DNA of 64,000 nucleotides from Verrucomicrobiota bacterium (lineage in GTDB: Bacteria; Verrucomicrobiota; Kiritimatiellia; JAKQHR01), in contig JAKQHR010000092.1 in assembly GCA_029557905.1 (NCBI GenBank), forward strand, positions 11,228 through 75,227, in the 5' to 3' direction. The translations under genes were made by a program, and so were the position numbers. This document shows positions 6,711 to 35,362 of the stretch, piece by piece. How positions within the stretch are numbered: the stretch's first letter is position 1; each line of letters opens with the position of its first letter. The notes under the pieces were generated by a model, which saw only the letters and a list, made by a program, of their open reading frames with translations, was not told the DNA's origin and searched no databases.

Positions 6711-6800
6711 AAAAGTTCCAATGACTGGAAAATCCCGCCGAAAAAGTTCCAATCATTGGAACTTTTTTCCCGAAAACTTCCAGTCATTGGAACTTTTCAG
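6711..6800. repeat. Array of three tandem AT-rich palindromic elements (AAAAGTTCCAATSATTGGAACTTTT) in a convergent intergenic spacer
   Basis: Copies at 6711-6731 (ttccaatgactggaa), 6741-6768 (gttccaatcattggaac) and 6773-6800 (ttccagtcattggaa, the reverse complement of copy 1). Each is an A-tract/hairpin/T-tract unit. The same motif triplet recurs at 39024-39113. Confidence 0.85.
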
Positions 6801-7978
6801 GCACTGCGCACGCGGGGCTTTGTGGTGATTTCAAGCGCGATCACGCACAGGTCGTCTTCCAGGGGCGTGCCGTCCGCGAAGAGCATGACCTCCTCCAGCA
6901 GGCCGTCCACCAGCTCCTTGACGTTTTTGTACATCAGCCGGCGGAGCACGGACTCCATGCGCTCGATGCCGAATTCCTCGCGCTGGCGGTTGAAGGCCTC
7001 GTAGACGCCGTCGGTGAAGAAGATGAACACATCATCCGGCACCAGCCGGCAGTGTCCGCCGGAGAACGCCTCGTCCGGAATGACGCCGAGCGCGGCGCCG
7101 CGCGGCGGCGGCACTTCAAGCCGCGAGATGCGGCCCACGCTCCGGTGCAGGTGGAAGGGACTGGGATGTCCGGCGGAAGAATAGGTGGCGATGCGGGAAG
7201 TGGTGTCGGCCACAAAATAGAAGGCCGAGGCAAACAGCGGATTGGGGATGCTTTTGAGCAGATCGCAGAACTGGCGGTTGATTTCAGAAAGGAAATGCGG
7301 GGCATGCCGCGCATAGGACAGCAGGTCCACCAGCAGGGTGCGCAGGATGGATGTGATCAGCGCGCTGCGCGTTCCATGGCCCATCACGTCGGCAATGAAC
7401 ACGCCGCCGGCATCGCGGCCGGCCTGGAGCAGATTGTAGAAGTCGCCGCCGAGCGCCGACGCCGGGCGGTAGCAGTGATGGAACTCCAGCCGCAGGCGTC
7501 CGGGAATGTGCACGTCGGGAATGGCGGGATAGGGCCGCTCCAGCATGGCCTCCTGAAAATCCTTGGCCAGTTCCAGGTCGCGCCGCATGTCGGAGGTGCG
7601 GGCGGCCACTTCGTCGGCATATTCCTTCTTGAAATCATCCAGCCAGGCATCCAGCTTATTCTGAACGGGCGAAGGCGGCAGGGGTGCGGCGCCCGGCGGG
7701 TCGGGTTCCGCCGCGCGGCCCAGCGCGTTGCGCATGATCCACTCGCCGGCGTCCAGCATTTCGCCGTAGGGGTTCAGCAGCCGGTGTTTCACGCGGGTGA
7801 ACACCGCCATGAAAATTCCCGCGGCAGCGGCCAGCGCCACGGCTCCGGCAAACAGGACCTGCCAAAGGTTCAGGGAGGCGATGCAGGCCGTTATGGCGGT
7901 TGCGCAAACGGCCAGCAGGAAAAGCAGTCCTCCCAGCAGAATGGCCATCCATTTGTGCAATCTTGTCTGCGGCTTCAT
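6797..7978 (-). CDS. PP2C-family (SpoIIE/RsbU-type) protein serine/threonine phosphatase with N-terminal double-TM anchor
   Basis: Two N-terminal TM helices, then GGDFYNLLQAGRDAGGVFIADVMGHGTRSALITSIL...ATYSSAGHPSPF, characteristic of the PP2C SpoIIE/RsbU catalytic domain. Confidence 0.8.
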   Translation of the reverse strand: MKPQTRLHKWMAILLGGLLFLLAVCATAITACIASLNLWQVLFAGAVALAAAAGIFMAVFTRVKHRLLNPYGEMLDAGEWIMRNALGRAAEPDPPGAAPLPPSPVQNKLDAWLDDFKKEYADEVAARTSDMRRDLELAKDFQEAMLERPYPAIPDVHIPGRLRLEFHHCYRPASALGGDFYNLLQAGRDAGGVFIADVMGHGTRSALITSILRTLLVDLLSYARHAPHFLSEINRQFCDLLKSIPNPLFASAFYFVADTTSRIATYSSAGHPSPFHLHRSVGRISRLEVPPPRGAALGVIPDEAFSGGHCRLVPDDVFIFFTDGVYEAFNRQREEFGIERMESVLRRLMYKNVKELVDGLLEEVMLFADGTPLEDDLCVIALEITTKPRVRSA

Positions 7979-8066: not shown

Positions 8067-9080
8067 TCAGAGAAGCTCTCCCTGCCCGGCAGGTTTCATC
8101 CCAAAAAGTTCACGGGCGCGGGCGGTGGCCACGCGGCCCTGCGGGGTCCGCTTGAGATAGCCCTCCTGAATGAGATACGGTTCGTACACCTCTTCGATGG
8201 TGTCCGATTCTTCGCCGACGGAAACCGCCAGCGACCGGATTCCGACCGGGCCGCCGGAGAATTTATTCAGGATGGTTCCGAGAATCCGCTTGTCCATGTC
8301 GTCCAGCCCGTGCGCATCCACGTCCAGCATCAGGAGGGCCTGGTCAGCCACTTCCGGCGTGATGCGGTTGTTGGCCCTGACCTGCGCGAAGTCGCGCACC
8401 CACCGCAGCAGGTTGTTGGCAATGCGCGGCGTGCCGCGCGCCCGGCGGGCGATTTCCATGGCTCCGTCCTCCCGGATGTCCGCGTTGAGAATTCGCGCCG
8501 AGCGCAGGATAATGGTCTGGAGGTCTTCGAAGCTGTAGTAGTCCAGCCGGTTGGTGAGCCCGAAACGGGAGCGGAGCGGGGCCGTGAGCAGCCCGCTGCG
8601 GGTGGTGGCCCCGATCAGCGTGAAGCGCGGAATGTTCAGCCGGACCGAACGGGCGTTCGGGCCCTGGTCAATCACGATATCAATGACATAGTCTTCCATG
8701 GCCGAATAGAGGTACTCCTCGACCGTCCGCTGGATGCGATGGATTTCATCAATGAAGAGAATGTCGCCGCGCTCAAGATTGGTGAGAAGCCCGGCCAGGT
8801 CGCCCGGCTTGTCAATCACCGGCCCGGACGTGCTTTTGATGTTCACGCCCATCGCATCGGCCAGGATGTAGGCCAGCGTCGTTTTGCCCAGCCCCGGCGG
8901 TCCGCAGAGCAGCACATGGTCCATGACATCGTTGCGGCCCTTTGCGGCCGCCACAAACAGCTCCAGCCGCTCGCGGATTTTCTGCTGGCCGATGAAATCA
9001 GAAAAGCGCTGCGGGCGCAGCGAAATGTCGAACTCCGTATCCGCCTGCTCGAGGGTTTGCGATATGAAATGTTCAGTCAT
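8067..9080 (-). CDS. ruvB: Holliday junction branch migration ATPase RuvB
   Basis: [22 protein letters not shown] Walker A, AAA+ core, C-terminal winged helix; full length 337 aa. Confidence 0.95.
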
Positions 9081-9123
9081 TGCGAAGCAGTATAGGAAAT
9101 GCGCCGCAGGGAGTAAAGCCGCA

Positions 9124-9711
9124 TCAGCCGGTCAGCGCCCGGCGCACAATCTCCTCGACGGTGGTCGCCTCTTCGGCCGGCACGCGGCCAACCATTTTGG
9201 CCGCGTCCATTTGTTTGTAGCCGAGCGCGATCAGCGCCATCATCGCGTCGCGCGCGTTCCGGCTGACGGGTTTTCCCGTTTCTCCGGCAAGCGCCTCGGC
9301 GGCTTCGCCCTCGCCGAATTTGTCGGAGAGTTCCACCACCAGCCGCTCGGCGGTCTTTTTCCCGACCCCCGAGATGGAGCTGAGCCGTTTCACGTCGCGC
9401 TCCAGCACCGCGCGCTTGAAGTCGCGCACGCTCAGGCTGCTGAGTGCGCTCAGGGCCAGCTTGGGCCCGACTCCGTTGACGGCCAGCAGCCGCACAAACA
9501 GTTCGCGTTCGGCCTCCGTCACGAAGCCGAAAAGTATGTGGGCGTCTTCGCGAACGTGATGATAGGTCAGGATTCTGCAGGTCTGGCCGGGCGCGGGCAG
9601 GGGGTCACAGCTGCTGAGGGGAATCAGCACCTCGTAGCCGACGCCGTGCACATCCAGCACAATGCGGGTGGGATTTTTAACGACCAGTTTTCCTTCCAGA
9701 AAGGCAATCAT
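9124..9711 (-). CDS. ruvA: Holliday junction DNA helicase RuvA
   Basis: [31 protein letters not shown] classic RuvA N-terminus; HhH motifs; 195 aa. Confidence 0.95.
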
Positions 9712-10622
9712 TTTTTCTCCCTCCGCACGGGTTCAAGAACCTGTCCGCGCCGGACAAAACCTTCCAGAATCCGCGCGTGAGCAGAGGCCCTGTTCACCTG
9801 TGTCACGCGGATGCGCCCCGTTTGGCGTCCCGCGATGGTCTCGATGACGCGTCCGCTGACCGGATCAGTGATCTCGCGGCTTTCCTCGCGGACGATGAAC
9901 TCATCATATTTCCTGACCCGCGCGTTTTCGCCTCCGTTGATGATGACGGTGTCTGTTCCGGCCTCGGCGATGCGCGGCTGCCAGTATTCCGCCGGGATGC
10001 CCCGGAGAATTCCCCTCACGCCCCGGCGGAGGGCCTGTTCCGCAGCCCTGCCCAGCGGGGAATCTGAAAAGGCCTTCCCGCCGAAAGTCATGTTCTTGTA
10101 GCTGATGTCTGCCTGGCGCCGGGGGGTCGAGGCGGCGCCTTTGGCCCGGAAAGACGACAGGACCGAGCCGGACTTTGAATCCGACACAACCAGTTCAATT
10201 TCCACTTGTGCCCGGCCTGGCCGTGCCCGCGAGACGGCAAACCAGCCGCTTGAGTCTCCGGCAACGGAAAATTCAGTCACGGAGCCGGAAATGACATACT
10301 GTGCGTAGCTGTCCGAGGCTCCGTCGTTCAGCAGCAGATTTTTCCCCTGATCGAGGATTTTTTCAACGCCGGCCCGGACCTCCGGAACATGCACTTCCAC
10401 GCGGTCTGTTTTGCGCAGCGCATCCGCCGCGAGTCGCGCCATATCCTCGCCCGGTTTCCATTTCCCGCGGAATCCCGAATGATCTTCGAAGGTCTCTATG
10501 GAAACGGCCGGACGGCTGTCCAGTTTGACCGGCCATCGCGCGCGCGAAGTGGCGCAGCCGGACGGGAGAAGAAATGCCGTTGAAGCGCAAATCAGGAAAA
10601 AGTTCTGGAGGCCGCGCGGCAT
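9708..10622 (-). CDS. CsgG/HfaB-family outer-membrane lipoprotein with C-terminal extra domain
   Basis: Lipobox LLPSGC; segments VSIETFEDHSGF...VISGSVTEFSV...VEIELVVSDSKSGSVLSS align by eye to the CsgG fold (COG1462). Stop overlaps the ruvA start, implying co-transcription. Start chosen at MPRGLQ (10622); the ORF could extend to 10664. Confidence 0.55.
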   Translation of the reverse strand: MPRGLQNFFLICASTAFLLPSGCATSRARWPVKLDSRPAVSIETFEDHSGFRGKWKPGEDMARLAADALRKTDRVEVHVPEVRAGVEKILDQGKNLLLNDGASDSYAQYVISGSVTEFSVAGDSSGWFAVSRARPGRAQVEIELVVSDSKSGSVLSSFRAKGAASTPRRQADISYKNMTFGGKAFSDSPLGRAAEQALRRGVRGILRGIPAEYWQPRIAEAGTDTVIINGGENARVRKYDEFIVREESREITDPVSGRVIETIAGRQTGRIRVTQVNRASAHARILEGFVRRGQVLEPVRREKK

Positions 10623-12468: not shown

Positions 12469-13539
12469 TCAGATCCACTTTTTCCGCCGGAACAGCAGCA
12501 GCATAAACAGCGCAATGCCGCTCATAATGGCCCAGCTCATGGCATAACCCCAGCGCCAGTCCAGCTCGGGCATATGCCGGAAATTCATGCCGTAGACCCC
12601 GGCCACGAAAGTCAGGGGAATGAAAATCGTGGCCGTGATGGTCAGGGTCTTCATGATTTCATTCATGTGAAAACTGATCTGCGAGATGTAGATGTCCAGC
12701 AGTCCGCCGGTGGTGTCCCGGAAGGTTTCCACCGCGTCCATGATCTGCAGCATGTGGTCCCGAAGGTTTCCAATGAAGCGGGATGTTTCCCGGCGGATGA
12801 GCGGCGAATCGCACCGCTGCAGATCGGAGGTCAGTTCCCGCAGCGGCCAGATGGCCTTGCGAATGTGAATCAGGTCGGAACGGACGCCGTGAATATTCTT
12901 GAGCGTTTCGGGGTCGGGCCGGCCGGAAACTTCTTCCTCCAGCCGCTCTATCCGGTCGCCAATGTCCTCCAGAATGAGATAATAATTGTCAATGATCATG
13001 TCGATCAGCGAATAGGCCAGATAGTCCGCGCCGTGCTCGGCCAGGTGCGAGTTCTTCTCGCGCAGGCGCTTGCGGACAGGATCAAAAACGTCGCCCTGCG
13101 CCTCCTGAAAGGTGAAAACCGCGTCCTGGGTCAGGAGCAGGCTGACCTGTTCCGATTCGATGTGATCGTCGTGGTCCTTGTTGTAGAGCATTCGAAGCAC
13201 ACAATAGATATAGCTGCCGTGATCCTCCATTTTGGGCCGCTGGCCGGTGTGCACGATGTCTTCGAGAACCAGTTCGTGGAAGCCGAACTGCGCCCCGATA
13301 CGGCGGATGAGATTCACGTCGCTGACCCCGTCCACATTCACCCAGGTGACATGCCCCCGGGGAAGCGGCCCGGAAGGAAACTGATCGGCGTGCACTTGCG
13401 TCTCCTCAAAATGGCCTTTGTTGTACGAGAAGACATCGATCATCTCGTTGGCATTCGGGTTGCTCCCGATGTACACCAGCGCTTCCGGGGGGCTTTGCAG
13501 CGCCCGCCGCCGGCTTTTCATGTGTCGCGACATGGACAT
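12469..13539 (-). CDS. corA: Magnesium/cobalt transporter CorA
   Basis: C-terminal two TM helices with the GMNF signature (YGMNFRHMPELDWRWGY) and a basic C-tail; 356 aa. Confidence 0.9.
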   Translation of the reverse strand: MSMSRHMKSRRRALQSPPEALVYIGSNPNANEMIDVFSYNKGHFEETQVHADQFPSGPLPRGHVTWVNVDGVSDVNLIRRIGAQFGFHELVLEDIVHTGQRPKMEDHGSYIYCVLRMLYNKDHDDHIESEQVSLLLTQDAVFTFQEAQGDVFDPVRKRLREKNSHLAEHGADYLAYSLIDMIIDNYYLILEDIGDRIERLEEEVSGRPDPETLKNIHGVRSDLIHIRKAIWPLRELTSDLQRCDSPLIRRETSRFIGNLRDHMLQIMDAVETFRDTTGGLLDIYISQISFHMNEIMKTLTITATIFIPLTFVAGVYGMNFRHMPELDWRWGYAMSWAIMSGIALFMLLLFRRKKWI

Positions 13540-13637
13540 CTCCTTAATATCGTCCGCTCATTATATTCTTCAGACGGCAGGCATGTCGAACAGAATCCGC
13601 GCGGTCGATTTTTGTGCGCGGTTTTCAATGATGCCTA

Positions 13638-13667
13638 TTGACGAGCGGCATCCGTTTCGGGTAGTTT
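13638..13667 (+). promoter_or_regulatory. Candidate sigma70-type promoter for the pilin-like gene (TTGACG-18 bp-TAGTTT)
   Basis: -35-like TTGACG at 13638-13643, 18-nt spacer, -10-like TAGTTT at 13662-13667, ~85 nt upstream of the ATG at 13752. Sequence-only guess. Confidence 0.3.
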
Positions 13668-13751
13668 ATCCGCAGAGTTGCAGTGAATTGGACGGGCATT
13701 GTGTGCGCTTGGACGGACGGAATGCCGCGGGTGATTAATCAGGAGACAGAA

Positions 13752-14432
13752 ATGACATACATCAGAAAATTGATGAAACGAAAAGGGTTCACGCTGATCG
13801 AACTGCTCGTGGTGATTGCGATTATCGCCGTGCTGGCCGGTTTGCTGCTGCCCGCGATTTCCAACGCCCGCGAGCGCGCCAACCGCATTTCGTGCGTGAA
13901 CAACCTCAAGCAGTTCGGCACCGGTCTGTACCTGTATGAGGACAGCTACGGTGAAAACAACTGGCCGGCGGGCCCCGGGCCCACAAACGACATTCGCGCG
14001 CTGGGCAAGTACGCCAATGCTCCCAAGATGTACATCTGCAAGAGCGACAAGTATCGTTCTGCCGCGGCGCGAATTGAGGACATAACGGGGGCCAACTGCA
14101 GCTATATCTACCTCGCCGGTTATCAGGCTTCCGACAATGGCAATTTTGTTGTCATGTTTGACAAGAACGGCCGTGAGGAGCCCTCCGGCATCCTTGCTGA
14201 AGACGCCAAACTTCTCGGAGCTACAACTCCGCCCAGCCAGGCCAACAGCTGGGGTGGAAATCATGGCACCGAGGGCGGCAATGCGCTGCATGTGGATGGA
14301 CATGCCGAGTGGATTCCCGTGGTCAGCGATGATTTCAACATCTCGGACCTTTTGAATGAAATGCGCTTCCCGTCGAACGCCGTCTATGAACTGACAGTGA
14401 CGACCTGCGCGGAGGTCATTCCGGCCAAGTAA
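13752..14432 (+). CDS. Prepilin-type N-terminal cleavage/methylation domain protein (type IV pilin-like, DUF1559/H-X9-DG family)
   Basis: [49 protein letters not shown] is the canonical PVC-superphylum pseudopilin N-terminus; SD aggaga precedes the ATG. Confidence 0.9.
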
Positions 14433-14455
14433 CCGGAATTCAGGAATATAGTGAA

Positions 14456-14486
14456 GAAAGCGGGAACATGTGTTCCCGCTTTTTTC
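14456..14486 (+). terminator. Rho-independent terminator after the pilin-like gene
   Basis: aaagcgggaacatgtgttcccgc followed by a T6 tract. Confidence 0.8.
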
Positions 14487-14494
14487 TTTGTTTT

Positions 14495-14550
14495 GGAGGG
14501 TCGAGCTCTGCGAGATCGAATTTCCGCGGCGTCGCAGAGCTCCGCCCTCC
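14495..14550. repeat. REP-like imperfect palindrome (GGAGGGTCGAGCTCTGCGA...TCGCAGAGCTCCGCCCTCC) flanking the RAYT gene
   Basis: ~56-nt inverted repeat. A further half-copy lies at 14583-14609 (GGAGGGTCGAGCTCCGCGAGACCGAAT). Its inverted partner TTTCCGCGGCGTCGCGGAGCTCCGCCCTCC is on the other side of the gene at 15125-15154. Confidence 0.8.
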
Positions 14551-14608
14551 AATCCTGAAATAGAGCGTCTATATGAACATCTGGAGGGTCGAGCTCCGCG
14601 AGACCGAA

Positions 14609-15082
14609 TCACCACCGCAACACATTGATTTCGCCGCAAAAGGGCCAGTCATCGGGTGATTCAACCAAACCTGCCCGGACGGGATTTTGGCGCACATATT
14701 CCCATTTATTGCCGTAACTCTCTTCGCGCCGTAATTGAGTATCCCAAAACTCCCGCTGCCATATTGGTTTTTCATTTTTGCGCGGCCATTGGCGGGTCAC
14801 CTCATTCTTCCAATAAGTGATCCATGCCTTCAGCCGGCAATTCAAATCTCTCGGCGCGCAGAAAAGGTGAATATGGTCGGGCATAATCACATAGCGACCG
14901 ACCAGCCAGCGATCGGCTTTTGTCCAGCCATCCAATAGCAGGTGTTGTGCTTCTGTATTGGCAAGCAAAGGTCGTTTGTCCTTCACGCAGAGTGTCAGAA
15001 ACAAAATGGTCGGATGATTGACCCTGATGTGAGGCGGATGATGCGCGGGGTGACATCTTTGCGGCAATTGGCTTTCGTTCAT
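14609..15082 (-). mobile_element. REP-associated tyrosine transposase (RAYT / TnpA_REP, IS200-like Y1 HuH transposase)
   Basis: HuH motif YVIMPDHIHLF; IWQREFWDTQLR and WEYVRQNPVRAGLVESPDDWPF closely parallel E. coli YafM (IWQPRFWEHAIR...DYIYINPVKHGWV...DWPF), including the catalytic Tyr context. Flanked by inverted REP elements. Confidence 0.85.
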
Positions 15083-15116
15083 ATCCGTTTATGTACCTCT
15101 GCACATGAAAAAGTGC

Positions 15117-15154
15117 GAGTTCAATTTCCGCGGCGTCGCGGAGCTCCGCCCTCC
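15117..15154. repeat. REP-like element, inverted partner of the 14583-14609 copy
   Basis: gagttcaatttccgcggcgtcgcggagctccgccctcc; a degenerate further copy may lie at 15190-15240. Confidence 0.75.
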
Positions 15155-15306
15155 AAAAATACCTTCCAGCCTCCGGTATGAACACATAGGGGGTCGATCT
15201 CCCACCTTCGCCAGGGGGCTTCGGAGGACAAGCCGCGAGACCGTACTTGTTTTCCATACTCCTCTGATTTAGAGTCATTGCCGGAAATTCACAGGGATAC
15301 TGATTT

Positions 15307-17148
15307 ATGTGCGGGATCATCGGATATGTTGGCAATGAGGATGCGCAGCCCGTTATTCTGGACGGCCTGAAGCGGCTGGAATACCGGGGTTATGACTCCG
15401 CCGGCCTGGCCGTGCTTTCCGGAGGAACGCTCACCATCCGCAAACGCGTCGGCCGGTTGTCCAGCCTGGAACAGACCTGCGCGGAAAACCCGGTGCAGGG
15501 GAGTCCCGGCATTGGCCACACGCGATGGGCCACCCATGGAGAACCGTCCGAAGTCAATTCCCATCCCCACACCGACACGGCCGGGGAGATCGCCGTGGTC
15601 CACAACGGCATCATTGAGAACTATCTTGAGCTGCGGGAGATGCTTGAGAAAGAAGGCTTTGTTTTCAGGTCGCAGACAGATACGGAAGTGATTCCAAACC
15701 TGATTGCGCTTGAACTGCGCCGGGACCAAAAGGATTTCATGGGCGCTCTATCGCGTGCGCTGCAGCGTGCGCGCGGGGCCTATGCGCTGGGCATCCTCTG
15801 GACCCGTGAACCCGGCCGCATTTATGCGGCGCGGCAGGGAAGCCCGCTGATCATTGGTGTGGGAGAGGGCGAAAATTTCATTGCGAGCGACGTGCCCGCC
15901 ATCATCAACCGCGTGACACGCGTGATTTATCTCAACGACGGCGAGATGGCCTGCCTTGAGGCCGATGGGATCAGGCTGTTCAATCTCAAGGGCGAAGAAC
16001 TCAAACCGGACATCCAGAAGGTTACGATTCATGCCGAAGCGGCCAGCAAGGCGGGCTTCGAGACCTTCATGCTCAAGGAAATCCACGAGCAGCCCCGGGT
16101 ACTTCACGGCCTGCTGTCGAAGCACACATCCGACCGTCAGGACATCGCCGTGGACCTGTCCGGACTGGGCCGGGACTACTGCCGCGCCATCAACCGGGTG
16201 ATGATTGTGAGCTGCGGCACGGCCTATTATGCCGGATGCTACGGCCGTCTTCTGCTGGAGCTTCTGCTTGATATCAATGTGGAAGTTGAACTGGGAAGTG
16301 AATTGCGCTACCGCAGGGCAAAACTGGATCCCGGCACGCTGATCATAGCCGTTTCGCAGTCTGGCGAAACCGCCGACACCATTGCCGCCGTGAAAAAGGC
16401 CAAGGCGTCCGGCTGCAGGGTTCTGTCCATCTGCAATGTGCCCGGCAGCTCGCTTGTGCGCGAAAGTCATGCGGTGCTGTTCACCGATGCGGGCCCCGAA
16501 ATCGGCGTGGCTTCGACGAAGGCCTTCACGGCGCAGCTGATGGCCTTCGCCCTGTTTTCGCTGGGTCTGGCCCGGCTTCGGGGAGAGCTTTCGGACGAGA
16601 AACTGTCGCGCTGCCTGGCCGAGCTGCAGAAGGTGCCGACACACATTCATTATGTGCTCAGCCGCAAAGATGCGATCCGCCAGATAGCCGACAAGCATCA
16701 TGACGGGCCCAGCGCGCTGTATCTCGGCCGCCGCTTCAACTATCCTATCGCGCTGGAGGGGGCGCTGAAAAACAAGGAAATATCCTATCAGCATGCGGAG
16801 GGATATGCCGCCGGGGAAATGAAGCACGGGCCGATTGCGCTGATCAGTGAGTATCTGCCGGTGGTGTGCATCTGCACGAAAACCGATGACGAGCTCTACG
16901 AGAAGATGATGTCCAATGTCCGCGAGGTGGACGCGCGTCACGGGCGCATTATCGCCGTGGCCACGGATGGCGATGAAGCTGTCCGCGGCCTCGCCGGGGA
17001 TATCATCTATGTTCCGGAAATCGCCGAAGAGTTTTCTCCCATGGTAAACGTCGTGGCGCTTCAGCTTCTGGCATATTATTCCGCTCAGGCCCGCGGGACG
17101 GACATAGACAAGCCCCGCAACCTGGCCAAAAGTGTAACCGTGGAGTGA
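15307..17148 (+). CDS. glmS: Glutamine--fructose-6-phosphate aminotransferase (isomerizing)
   Basis: MCGIIGYVG N-terminal nucleophile Cys; two SIS domains; C-terminal KSVTVE. Confidence 0.95.
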   Translation: MCGIIGYVGNEDAQPVILDGLKRLEYRGYDSAGLAVLSGGTLTIRKRVGRLSSLEQTCAENPVQGSPGIGHTRWATHGEPSEVNSHPHTDTAGEIAVVHNGIIENYLELREMLEKEGFVFRSQTDTEVIPNLIALELRRDQKDFMGALSRALQRARGAYALGILWTREPGRIYAARQGSPLIIGVGEGENFIASDVPAIINRVTRVIYLNDGEMACLEADGIRLFNLKGEELKPDIQKVTIHAEAASKAGFETFMLKEIHEQPRVLHGLLSKHTSDRQDIAVDLSGLGRDYCRAINRVMIVSCGTAYYAGCYGRLLLELLLDINVEVELGSELRYRRAKLDPGTLIIAVSQSGETADTIAAVKKAKASGCRVLSICNVPGSSLVRESHAVLFTDAGPEIGVASTKAFTAQLMAFALFSLGLARLRGELSDEKLSRCLAELQKVPTHIHYVLSRKDAIRQIADKHHDGPSALYLGRRFNYPIALEGALKNKEISYQHAEGYAAGEMKHGPIALISEYLPVVCICTKTDDELYEKMMSNVREVDARHGRIIAVATDGDEAVRGLAGDIIYVPEIAEEFSPMVNVVALQLLAYYSAQARGTDIDKPRNLAKSVTVE

Positions 17149-32974: not shown

Positions 32975-35362
32975 ATGGCCCTGAAAGCAGATAAAGTCAG
33001 TTCGATGCTGTGCAGTCACTGCGGAGCCGCCATGGATGTGTCTTCACAGGACCCGTTTTCCACGGCGCTGTGCCCGGCTTGCGGCCGTTCGCAGATAGTG
33101 CCGATGCAGTTCGGCTCGATCCTTCTTCTTGAACCGCTTGGGGCCGGAGGCATGGGGGCCATCTACCGCGCGCTGGATCCCATGCTGGACCGCTATCTGG
33201 CCATCAAGGTGATGCAGACCGCCGGCGCGGCAGATGATCAGTTCGTGGAGAATTTCTTCCGTGAAGCCCGCGCCGCCGCCGCGCTCAACCATCCCCACAT
33301 CGTTCAGATTTATTCCTGCGGCCGCGAGTACGGCCAGCCCTACATCGCCATGGAACTGCTGGAGGGAGGGACCCTCGATGAGATGATCCATTCTTCCGGC
33401 ACCGTGGACGAGCTGGATGTTCTGCAAATCGGCATATCTGTTTCCGAGGGTCTTCGGGCTGCAGGCGAAATCGGGCTGACGCATGGAGACATCAAGCCCG
33501 CCAATATTCTTTTCGACAGCCATCACAAGGCCAAGATCGCCGATTTCGGACTGGCCCGCTTCATGCAGCAGGGCTCCTCCGCTGAAATATGGGGAACTCC
33601 TTTCTACATTGCTCCCGAGAAACTGCGGAAGCAGAAGGAGGATCAGCGTTCCGATATCTACAGCCTCGGCGCCACGCTTTTTCACGCACTGACCGGGCAG
33701 CCCCCGTTTGACGGCAAGACGGCCACGGATGTGGCGGTCGCCCGTCTGGACCAGCCGCCGCCGGATGTCCGCGACAGAAATCCGGGAATATCTCCCGAAG
33801 TGGCGGCGGTCATTGCGCGCATGCTCAAGGAGAATCCGCACGAGCGATATCCCACCTATGCTTCGCTGATTGCCGACATGAAGAGTGTGCTGGCGGTGCT
33901 TCGGCAGAAACGCGGCAGCCGGCCGATGCGTCCTAAAATGAGGAAATCGCACGCGGGCGCTTTTGTGGCCGCGGCCCTTTTTGCGCTTATTGCCGCGGGG
34001 ATATGGATGAGCCAGCGCGAAGGTTCGGGGCCTCCCGAGGGTCCGCTGTCCGGCCCGTCTCGTCCGGAGGAACCCGCCGTGCCGGAGATGCGGGGAAGTA
34101 AGCCTTTTGAGGGCGTTCGCGGAACCGCCATGGAACGGATACTGAACCTGTTCGCCGCCGGGAATGTCATGGCGGCATCAGAAAGTCTGCAGGCGCTGTA
34201 TGAAAAAATTCCCCCGGACAGTCCGGATCGCTCGTGGATATGCCTGTTTCAGGCGCTGATGCTCTGGTATGACGGAAACGGCGGGAGCGGGGATGAACTG
34301 CTTGACCGGGCTCTGGCCGGGTTCGCCGGGAGCGATGCCTCGGCCGGCGCCCTGATCGCCGCATACATGAAGGGGAATATGGATGAGGCGGCGGTTGAAG
34401 CCTCTGCCGGCGAGCAACCGCAGTGGGTGGGCGATTTCACCGGATTTGTCGCGGGTATGAATCATGCCCGGCAGGGACGAAAGGATGAAGCGGACGTGCG
34501 CTGGCGCACTTATCTTCAGACCACGAATGACAAGCCGGCCTGGGTTTATGTCCTGAAGCCTCTGGCGCAGAAATTCACGGAAAGTCACGCCCGCTGGGAA
34601 CGTCTGAATGCGGAAGTGACCGCTCTGCTCGAAGCCCGCAAACCCGGAGAGGCCCGGGTTCTTCTGCGCGATTTCAAGCTGACCGCCGGTCCGGTCTTTG
34701 CCGCTGAAACGGATCAGCTCTTCGAGAAGGTTCAGGCGCTGGAAGCCTCGCTGACCGAGGCCGAGGCGGCCCGCCTCGCGGAACAGCAGGCTGCGGCCGC
34801 CGCCAGAAAAAAAGCAAAAGCCGAGTCCGAGGTCGCAAAGGTTCGGAAAGCGGTGGAATCCGGCCGGAGACACTATCCCTCCAGGGATTTCGATAGGGCT
34901 CTAGCCGCAATTGAAAAGCTTCGGCCCGCGATGACTACGGAAGAGGGATGGGTGGAATATCAGCTGGCGCGCGAAAAAGTGTCCCGTCTTGACGCAATGC
35001 ACCGCTATCTCCAGAACGCATTGCGCACGCGTCCCTGCAGAATCAGTGTGTTCGGGAAAAACACGCGCGTGGCGGGAGCAACCTCGCGTGGTGTGCGCGT
35101 GGCGATTGGCACTCAGGCCGATATGGTGCGGGAGTGGCAGGAGATCACGGCGGCCCAGTATGTCGGCCTGATTCGCCAGTATCTTGATGCTGAACAGAAA
35201 ACCGTGCGCGAGAAAGCGGATGATCATCTCAGCCTGGCCGTGTTCGCTTCGGAAACAGACGGCGGACAGCTGGCCGCGCAGCTTGCGCGAAAAGCCGTGG
35301 CGCTGGATCCGGCCGTCAGGGATCTCGGCCTGCGCCTTCTGCCTGATCTGGACTGGGAATAG
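32975..35362 (+). CDS. Hanks-type Ser/Thr protein kinase with N-terminal zinc ribbon, single TM helix and ~450 aa helical extracytoplasmic C-terminal region
   Basis: CSHCGAAMDV...CPACGRSQIVP zinc ribbon; kinase subdomains LGAGGMGAIYRA, AIKV, HGDIKPANILF, DFG, GTPFYIAPE; TM AGAFVAAALFALIAAGIWM; C-terminal alpha-helical region with a coiled coil. Confidence 0.88.
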   Translation: MALKADKVSSMLCSHCGAAMDVSSQDPFSTALCPACGRSQIVPMQFGSILLLEPLGAGGMGAIYRALDPMLDRYLAIKVMQTAGAADDQFVENFFREARAAAALNHPHIVQIYSCGREYGQPYIAMELLEGGTLDEMIHSSGTVDELDVLQIGISVSEGLRAAGEIGLTHGDIKPANILFDSHHKAKIADFGLARFMQQGSSAEIWGTPFYIAPEKLRKQKEDQRSDIYSLGATLFHALTGQPPFDGKTATDVAVARLDQPPPDVRDRNPGISPEVAAVIARMLKENPHERYPTYASLIADMKSVLAVLRQKRGSRPMRPKMRKSHAGAFVAAALFALIAAGIWMSQREGSGPPEGPLSGPSRPEEPAVPEMRGSKPFEGVRGTAMERILNLFAAGNVMAASESLQALYEKIPPDSPDRSWICLFQALMLWYDGNGGSGDELLDRALAGFAGSDASAGALIAAYMKGNMDEAAVEASAGEQPQWVGDFTGFVAGMNHARQGRKDEADVRWRTYLQTTNDKPAWVYVLKPLAQKFTESHARWERLNAEVTALLEARKPGEARVLLRDFKLTAGPVFAAETDQLFEKVQALEASLTEAEAARLAEQQAAAAARKKAKAESEVAKVRKAVESGRRHYPSRDFDRALAAIEKLRPAMTTEEGWVEYQLAREKVSRLDAMHRYLQNALRTRPCRISVFGKNTRVAGATSRGVRVAIGTQADMVREWQEITAAQYVGLIRQYLDAEQKTVREKADDHLSLAVFASETDGGQLAAQLARKAVALDPAVRDLGLRLLPDLDWE

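Follow-up and report, generated by a model that had tools for sequence, protein, structure and literature searches.

A probable REPtron with GGAG-footed hairpins in a bacterium of the Kiritimatiellia

Described families of repetitive extragenic palindromic (REP) sequences are mostly specific for a species or a genus and carry a GTAG foot. Such a repeat canonically starts with a conserved 5′ tetranucleotide, after which comes an imperfect palindrome disturbed by a fixed irregularity (PMC8266576). The closest system known for the locus analysed here is the REPtron of Escherichia coli, which consists of the REP-associated tyrosine transposase (RAYT) TnpA_REP (YafM/RayT; group 2, subclass 2.2; structure 4ER8) and of y, z1 and z2 REPs, which are joined as y/z heterodimers in bacterial interspersed mosaic elements (BIMEs) (PMC3733652, PMC8266576). 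We analysed a stretch of 64,000 nucleotides (nt) from a member of the Kiritimatiellia (contig JAKQHR010000092.1 of assembly GCA_029557905.1, positions 11,228 to 75,227), called the window in the following, in which a single RAYT gene at 14609-15082 lies among short inverted repeats. Very probably this locus is a REPtron, that is, one domesticated gene for a HUH/Y1 endonuclease-transposase of single-stranded DNA (ssDNA) among its cognate REP hairpins. Two REP types are present, CG and TC according to the bases at the variable stem pairs, and they are inverted into a doublet and bracket the gene.

The locus shares with the E. coli REPtron the single HUH/Y1 gene flanked by inverted REPs, the 5′ tetranucleotide followed by an imperfect hairpin with a fixed stem irregularity, and the two repeat types in heterotypic doublets (PMC8266576). 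It differs in the foot, which is GGAG instead of GTAG, in the irregularity, a tandem G.A mismatch here and a bulge in E. coli, and in a CTCYG loop that is conserved over phylum-level distances. Furthermore, the copy number appears low compared to about 600 in E. coli. The features of the locus are as follows:

14495 to 14517, plus strand: REP A1, TC type, GGAG foot and GGTCGAG-CTCTG-CGAGATC; left arm of the doublet, exact pattern match
14528 to 14550, minus strand: REP B1, CG type, GGAGGGCGGAGCTCTGCGACGCC; right arm of the doublet
14583 to 14605, plus strand: REP A2, TC type, GGAGGGTCGAGCTCCGCGAGACC; its end lies 3 nt from the RAYT stop codon
14609 to 15082, minus strand: RAYT/TnpA_REP gene, 157 amino acids (aa), with the HUH motif H70-I71-H72 and the predicted catalytic Tyr129 in Y---NP
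15113 to 15131, minus strand: linker and putative remnant of a truncated inner REP, on the RAYT strand GCGGAAATT-GAACTCGCA; read from the sequence and compared with the doublet
15132 to 15154, minus strand: REP B2, CG type, GGAGGGCGGAGCTCCGCGACGCC; 49 nt upstream of the RAYT start codon and inverted relative to A2
15188 to 15242, plus strand: degenerate REP-like unit A3, AGGGGGTCGATCTCC, a 32-nt loop insert (15203-15234) and GCGAGACC

The protein encoded at 14609-15082 is a RAYT of the TnpA_REP type because it matches the curated profile for this family, has the E. coli enzyme as closest solved structure in sequence and in fold, and keeps an invariant HUH motif and tyrosine. With the NCBIfam equivalog model NF047646 (REP_Tyr_transpos) the protein reaches 102.7 bits (cutoff 80) over residues 25-149. 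In a sequence search of the PDB, 4ER8, the E. coli TnpA_REP with its REP hairpin, is the sole good match (E = 8e-10); MPDHIHLF stands opposite LPEHMHCI, and WEY129VRQNPV opposite VDY115IYINPV, so that Y129 corresponds to Y115. An AlphaFold (AF2) model, built from 34 homologs, reaches a mean predicted local distance difference test score (pLDDT) of 84.8 and a predicted template modelling score (pTM) of 0.81, and its top fold match in the PDB is again 4ER8, chain A (E = 3.6e-7, TM-score 0.65, root mean square deviation 2.6 Å). The initial annotation had recognised in this open reading frame (ORF) the motif MPDHIHLF and a C-terminal block IWQREFWDTQLR...WEYVRQNPVRAGLV...DWPF, and had likened the product to YafM/TnpA_REP; both motifs are found in the translation exactly as described, and the likeness is borne out by the structure searches.

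A homolog search with the RAYT protein returned 4752 proteins at E ≤ 0.001, several of which are already named RayT or REP-associated tyrosine transposase in their source records. The closest named homologs come from metagenome-assembled genomes (MAGs) of Kiritimatiellae, Chthoniobacterales and Verrucomicrobiota. Across the 34 homologs, which are 52-67% identical, H70, H72, Y129, N133, P134, W108, Q109, W113, D114 and R118 are invariant, and the active site is predicted to be intact. Y129-VRQ-N133-P134 forms the Y---NP motif, which is the signature of class 2 (TnpA_REP) (PMC6006769). W94, Q95 and R104 of the E. coli enzyme are part of the region which contacts the GTAG foot, and they align with W108, Q109 and R118 here, so that the foot-contacting W-Q...R residues are conserved (PMC6006769). 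On the other hand the identity to the E. coli enzyme is just about 24-30%, and in the foot-contacting segment H101 is replaced by Thr and E100 by Asp. One may speculate that these two replacements are tied to the change of the foot from GTAG to GGAG.

The REP unit comprises 23 nt and can be written as GGAG, GGNNGAG, CTCYG, CGAN′N′CC. Its stem of seven positions consists of G:C, G:C, two freely covarying pairs, the tandem G.A/A.G mismatch and a final G:C. In a relaxed search positions 7-8 covary with positions 20-21: the combination CG/CG was found 105 times, GC/GC 30, TC/GA 28 and CC/GG 15 times, followed by the rarer AT/AT (3) and TG/CA, AC/GT and CT/AG (one each). In total 184 out of 221 units are fully Watson-Crick paired at these positions, with at least eight different Watson-Crick dinucleotide combinations; T:G variants, which are compatible with wobble pairing, also occur.

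For a fair test of the covariation only units derived from exact matches were used, in which the 3′ positions lie outside the search pattern. Of these, 88 units combine CG with CGCC, 25 have TC and GACC, and 11 have CC and GGCC. In the 111 distinct units 96.8% of the cells pair, compared to 83.7 ± 1.2% in shuffles (none of 500 reached the observed value), and 54 double changes are seen compared to 17 ± 3. Controls in which the partner was slid along the sequence gave 30-58% pairing. The GGAG foot is invariant in the 111 units, but its position was fixed by the search pattern. Because the covariation lies within the unit, each 23-nt unit is predicted to form a full REP hairpin of its own. The unit thus appears to follow the canonical REP plan, yet with GGAG in place of GT[AG]G. 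Judged from the sequence, these repeats fall outside the described GTAG super-family by the tag alone, the architecture being identical.

Several other descriptions of the repeat were considered and given up. The initial annotation had reported an imperfect palindrome of about 56 nt at 14495-14550 with additional half-sites on both sides of the gene. The palindrome is real, and as ssDNA it folds with -21.8 kcal/mol (z = -5.2; none of 200 shuffles was as good). Repeats also exist at the positions given for the half-sites, but according to the covariation each of them is a complete REP with its foot. The palindrome as basic unit is ruled out by the covariation within the units and also countered by the systematic difference between the doublet arms at the covarying pairs. 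A model in which the stem had 4 bp and the loop 11 nt was replaced, as the loci of distant homologs show 7-bp stems and 6-nt CTCYGT loops; because of these 7-bp stems, GAG...CGA in the window is read as the tandem G.A mismatch and G:C. A CGTC tag on the reverse strand of the CG type (GGCGTCGC) was dismissed, since those bases lie in the covarying stem; the known CGTC families have stems of 8-9 bp starting with AT and no transposase (PMC3733652). A pseudoknot between GGAG and the CTCY of the loop was dropped because all positions are invariant.

In the window the pattern GGAGGGYSGAGCTCYGCGA has four exact matches, at 14495 (+), 14532 (-), 14583 (+) and 15136 (-). By chance 0.27 matches are expected, and none of 100 shuffles reached four; up to three mismatches add no further match in the window. 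A1 and B1 form a heterotypic doublet of the BIME or REPIN (REP doublet forming hairpins) kind at 14495-14550. Across all fetched loci (labelled L with a number in the following) we found 69 convergent REP pairs with spacers of 0-61 nt and one outlier of 172 nt. In only four of these 69 pairs do the two arms belong to one type; usually a CG-type unit is combined with a GC-, TC-, AT- or CC-type unit. Such heterotypic pairing keeps the hairpin of each unit and places mismatches into the long palindrome.

A2 and B2, one REP of each type, are inverted copies of one repeat and bracket the RAYT gene (14582-14606 and 15131-15155; 25 nt, 84% complementary). B1 and B2 share a stretch of 34 nt with 97% identity, tail included. 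Along the RAYT strand the order is A3, B2, the linker with the truncated inner unit (GAACTCGCA), RAYT, A2, a gap of 32 nt and the B1-A1 doublet. The stretch 15113-15131 would be what is left of a truncated inner REP, as the intact doublet has GCGGAAATTCGATCTCGCAGAGCTC... at this place. Because GCGGAAATT stands as linker behind B1 as well as B2, and A1 and A2 are each preceded by ATTCG, it looks as if the gene sits within a split doublet. The REP-RAYT-REP layout that the initial annotation had called canonical holds as far as inverted copies bracket the gene; in relatives the layout is doublet-RAYT-doublet (L102, L057, L073, L129, L135), whereas here a single REP on each side is accompanied, upstream of the gene, by the putative truncated inner unit. 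Inverted REP flanks together with doublets were also found in L102, L057, L073, L129, L133, L135 and L136, and the position and TC type of A2 recur just after the stop codon in L133, the locus of a 67% identical homolog.

Doublets on both sides of the RAYT gene, as in these relatives, are also known from the REPIN-RAYT systems of Pseudomonas (group 3, subclass 2.5), which share with our locus a gene that is apparently single-copy and stable in position within the species. The REPs of Pseudomonas group 3 have a GTAG foot, are short and perfectly palindromic and number hundreds to thousands, whereas the stems here are imperfect and the copies apparently few. TIRYTs, which form TIRtrons with their terminal inverted repeats (TIRs) (Di Nocera 2013; mostly subclass 2.1), resemble the locus in having a RAYT-like gene and moderately abundant inverted repeats without GTAG in phyla other than Proteobacteria. 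However, TIRYTs are long and have a C-terminal helix-turn-helix extension; GGGGWSAS is common to their TIRs, which differ from hairpin REPs (PMC3733652, PMC6006769). Membership in this group is ruled out by the length of 157 aa without extension, the protein ending 8 residues past DWPF, and by flanks of the foot-plus-hairpin kind.

The degenerate unit A3 and A2 (14583) form a direct repeat which includes the 5′ flank TATGAACA (81% identical). The 32-nt insert of A3 is placed exactly in the hairpin loop. When sought in all fetched loci it was found only in strains of the same locus, where it is polymorphic (15209 C/T, 15216 G/A).

By analogy with E. coli TnpA_REP (PMC8266576) the RAYT would bind a REP that has folded on single-stranded DNA, recognising foot and loop by sequence and the stem by shape, with the foot being required. 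Cleavage nearby would then use Tyr129 and an HUH-bound metal and lead to a 5′-phosphotyrosine intermediate, and rejoining of the strands would copy REP doublets to, or maintain them at, other intergenic sites. We infer binding, cleavage and mobilisation of the REPs by the RAYT, as well as dispersal in the source genome, from this analogy.

Several results weigh against a REPtron with dispersed repeats. With regard to the protein, Pfam Y1_Tnp gives a score of 21, slightly under its cutoff of 23. With regard to folding, a lone TC-type unit is weak (-2.4 to -3.6 kcal/mol, z near 0), and the minimum free energy of the CG-type unit (-7.3 to -7.6 kcal/mol) belongs to a competing tail hairpin and not to the REP stem. 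None of the four units of the window has GTAG or GTGG at its foot, all have GGAG. The initial annotation had predicted tens to hundreds of copies across the genome. The other 63 kb of the window contain no REP copy with up to four mismatches, and a hairpin search independent of the subfamily found no GGAG-footed hairpin of any stem in the window outside the RAYT locus. Finally, a 29-nt extended form of the repeat was found in metagenome contigs at the RAYT locus only, which is a weak test of dispersal because the dispersed copies in L129 do not share tails with the gene-flanking ones.

When one genome per species was scanned with the pattern from the initial annotation, at least 120 stretches were hit. 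The matches listed are nearly all from MAGs of Verrucomicrobiota, Kiritimatiellia, Lentisphaerales, Chthoniobacterales and Udaeobacter, and include a few obvious chance ones and a few in MAGs labelled Terriglobia, Dormiibacterota, Limnocylindria or Acidimicrobiia. In five MAGs (JBBCKI01, CBDCJI01, SLCI01, CAYQJG01, DAOLCW01) at least six separate 8-kb stretches were hit. Those copies away from RAYT genes which were compared with gene calls (L129, L135 at 12952, L137) are intergenic. These counts show a REP family dispersed over multiple sites in the relatives, at a copy number which is at least modest. Because the density in the relatives looks like a few sites per Mb among the matches listed, the lack of a copy in 63 kb is unsurprising.

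The live alternative is an orphan or quiescent system, in which enzyme and local REPs are real but the REPs never spread or were lost in this genome, and the gene is kept for another host function or by vertical inertia. It differs from a REPtron with dispersed repeats only in the genome-wide REP count, and we regard it as rather unlikely. It would account for the absence of REP copies outside 14495-15242 within 64 kb and for the restriction of the extended 29-mer to the RAYT locus, and RAYT groups 1 and 4 are known to have just 12-14 copies of their flanking repeats per replicon (PMC5581495). However, with relatives apparently so sparse in REPs, judged by the matches listed, a 64-kb window would often hold none, and dispersed copies need not carry the tail of the 29-mer. 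Moreover, the active site is predicted to be intact, and the gene and its REPs are without strain differences while the neighbouring genes differ. This last point comes from strains with 99.1-99.9% identity (L001-L006, L127 and L128 versus window 14433-15082), in which RAYT and the downstream REPs show no difference, whereas 1-12 sites are different in the adjoining genes, glmS and the prepilin-type gene. Given the small numbers this invariance is compatible with constraint on RAYT and REPs, without proving it.

The association of the hairpins with RAYT genes was found repeatedly in other genomes. Hairpins adjoin RAYT homologs in L102, L057, L101 and L073, and in all seven loci fetched by the protein alone (L129, L131, L133-L137) GGAG-footed hairpins lie beside the gene. 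Their foot is GGAG, except for GAAG or GGAA in two units, and is followed by a stem of 7 bp starting with GG, a CTCYG(T)-like loop of 5-6 nt and the complementary arm. The stems vary between the loci (GGACGGG, GGACGAC, GGCCATG, GGACGCG, GGCGCTG, GGACACG, GGTACTG), while the GGAG foot and the CTCYGT-like loop are mostly kept in distant loci, with one arm in L137 (CGTCGT) and L134 (CTTCGT) as exceptions. In the four 20-kb loci L134-L137, 20 of the 26 hairpins are no more than about 500 nt away from the RAYT gene.

This systematic adjacency speaks against hairpins that are primarily host elements of RNA or transcription (terminators, mRNA stabilisers or protein-binding sites), next to which the RAYT gene would lie incidentally. 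Units are indeed found in intergenic 3′ regions, the doublet follows, on the plus strand, directly after a terminator-like hairpin at 14453-14486, and the T:G variants at the covarying pairs are what pairing in RNA would tolerate. But a scan of positions 13500-16000 against Rfam gave only sub-threshold chance matches, none of them on the repeats, so that no Rfam family is matched, and a role in RNA is compatible with recognition by the RAYT, as REPs of E. coli do both (PMC8266576). We therefore hold such an incidental origin to be very improbable.

An identical protein is encoded on 22 contigs from several metagenomes and one NCBI MAG (GCA_035341175.1, contig DAOQUU010000036.1), and in all six of these contigs that were listed the neighbours are glmS and the prepilin-type gene. 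The single copy within the 64 kb of the window and the fixed neighbours on the listed contigs resemble domestication. Across genera the homologs occur in differing gene neighbourhoods. IS200/IS605 TnpA (IS608, ISDra2) has the HUH/Y1 fold and probably the chemistry in common with the RAYT, and would also share with it the recognition of ssDNA hairpins by way of a guide or foot on the 5′ side. The differing neighbourhoods, the common fold, the weak Pfam Y1_Tnp match and the IS200/IS605 transposases among the secondary, lower-scoring fold matches of the model would suit an autonomous IS200/IS605-type element which transposes as a whole with the repeats as its ends; yet we regard this as very unlikely, the least probable of the explanations, because the NCBIfam profile transpos_IS200 (NF033573) scores 15.8, far under its cutoff of 55, the gene is single copy in a fixed context on the listed contigs, no tnpB partner is present beside glmS and the prepilin-type gene, the flanks are inverted REPs that also occur without a gene whereas the two ends of an IS200/IS605 element do not form an inverted repeat, and Y---NP belongs to class 2 TnpA_REP (PMC6006769).

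A RAYT gene with its REPs is by itself routine annotation, as the class has been known since 2010 and a name for the protein is already given by the NCBI profile. What the locus adds is modest and concerns the repeat, whose GGAG foot and CTCYG loop are recognisable beside 52-67% identical RAYTs in several classes of the Planctomycetes-Verrucomicrobia-Chlamydiae (PVC) group while the stems change by compensation. A full-text literature search for the repeat sequence found nothing, and the supplements of REP/RAYT surveys contain no GGAGGG-type REP; few PVC genomes are included there, only Opitutus terrae, with GTAG repeats. Whether the GGAG-footed REP with its CTCYG(T) loop and this RAYT clade form a REPtron lineage not described in the searched surveys is, to our judgement, evenly balanced. 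Such a lineage would span Verrucomicrobiota, Kiritimatiellia, Lentisphaerales and possibly some Acidobacteriota MAGs, with foot and loop near-fixed, covarying stems and two types per REPtron in heterotypic doublets. If true, it would represent a natural mutagenesis series for the reading of hairpins by RAYTs, and it would imply a very long co-persistence, or repeated transfer, of the pair of REP and enzyme. The pattern of conservation suggests that the enzyme may read foot and loop and tolerate changes in the stem. In addition, the repeat offers a simple search pattern for annotating REPs in genomes of the PVC group, in which the repeats overlap the ends of genes and may cause breaks in assemblies.

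With regard to distribution, the REP core was also seen in MAGs labelled as non-PVC (L051, L052, L061, L115 and L131, all Terriglobia, as well as L067, L118, L038, L080 and L030), and L131 encodes a 60% identical RAYT. These copies could be due to horizontal transfer, to a truly wide distribution or to binning errors. In L015, L085 (VHCO01), L106 (DAOLCW01) and L129 (1119-1290), all from PVC MAGs, REP units are arrayed in tandem with a period of either about 47-48 nt or about 117 nt and do not stand as isolated doublets. In L129, a Kiritimatiellae MAG, the called upstream AMP-binding gene (8209-9996) runs through a whole REP doublet at 9927-9996, and the REP insertion may have extended the 3′ end of this gene.

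Other repeats were noticed in the window. The hairpin at 14453-14486, a near-perfect 15-bp palindrome with T-runs, separates the RAYT/REP block from the convergent prepilin-type gene (13683-14432, +) and is probably a shared bidirectional terminator. A second, unrelated palindromic family is located at 6711-6815 and 39007-39112, each site consisting of three tandem AT-rich units AAAAGTTCCAATSATTGGAACTTTT with a spacing of 31 nt, without a GGAG foot and between convergent ORFs. Among the fetched loci it was confined to strains of this organism, if one disregards a match with four mismatches in L096 that is likely due to chance. These arrays could be bidirectional terminators, an operator array or a more abundant REP-like family of this genome. 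Finally, two pairs of repeats (33146-33214 and 37301-37369; 33845-33880 and 38000-38035) are 75-83% identical, have the same spacing of 4155 nt and lie within long ORFs, which suggests two paralogous genes; their translation shows a kinase-like motif of the AIKVM type.

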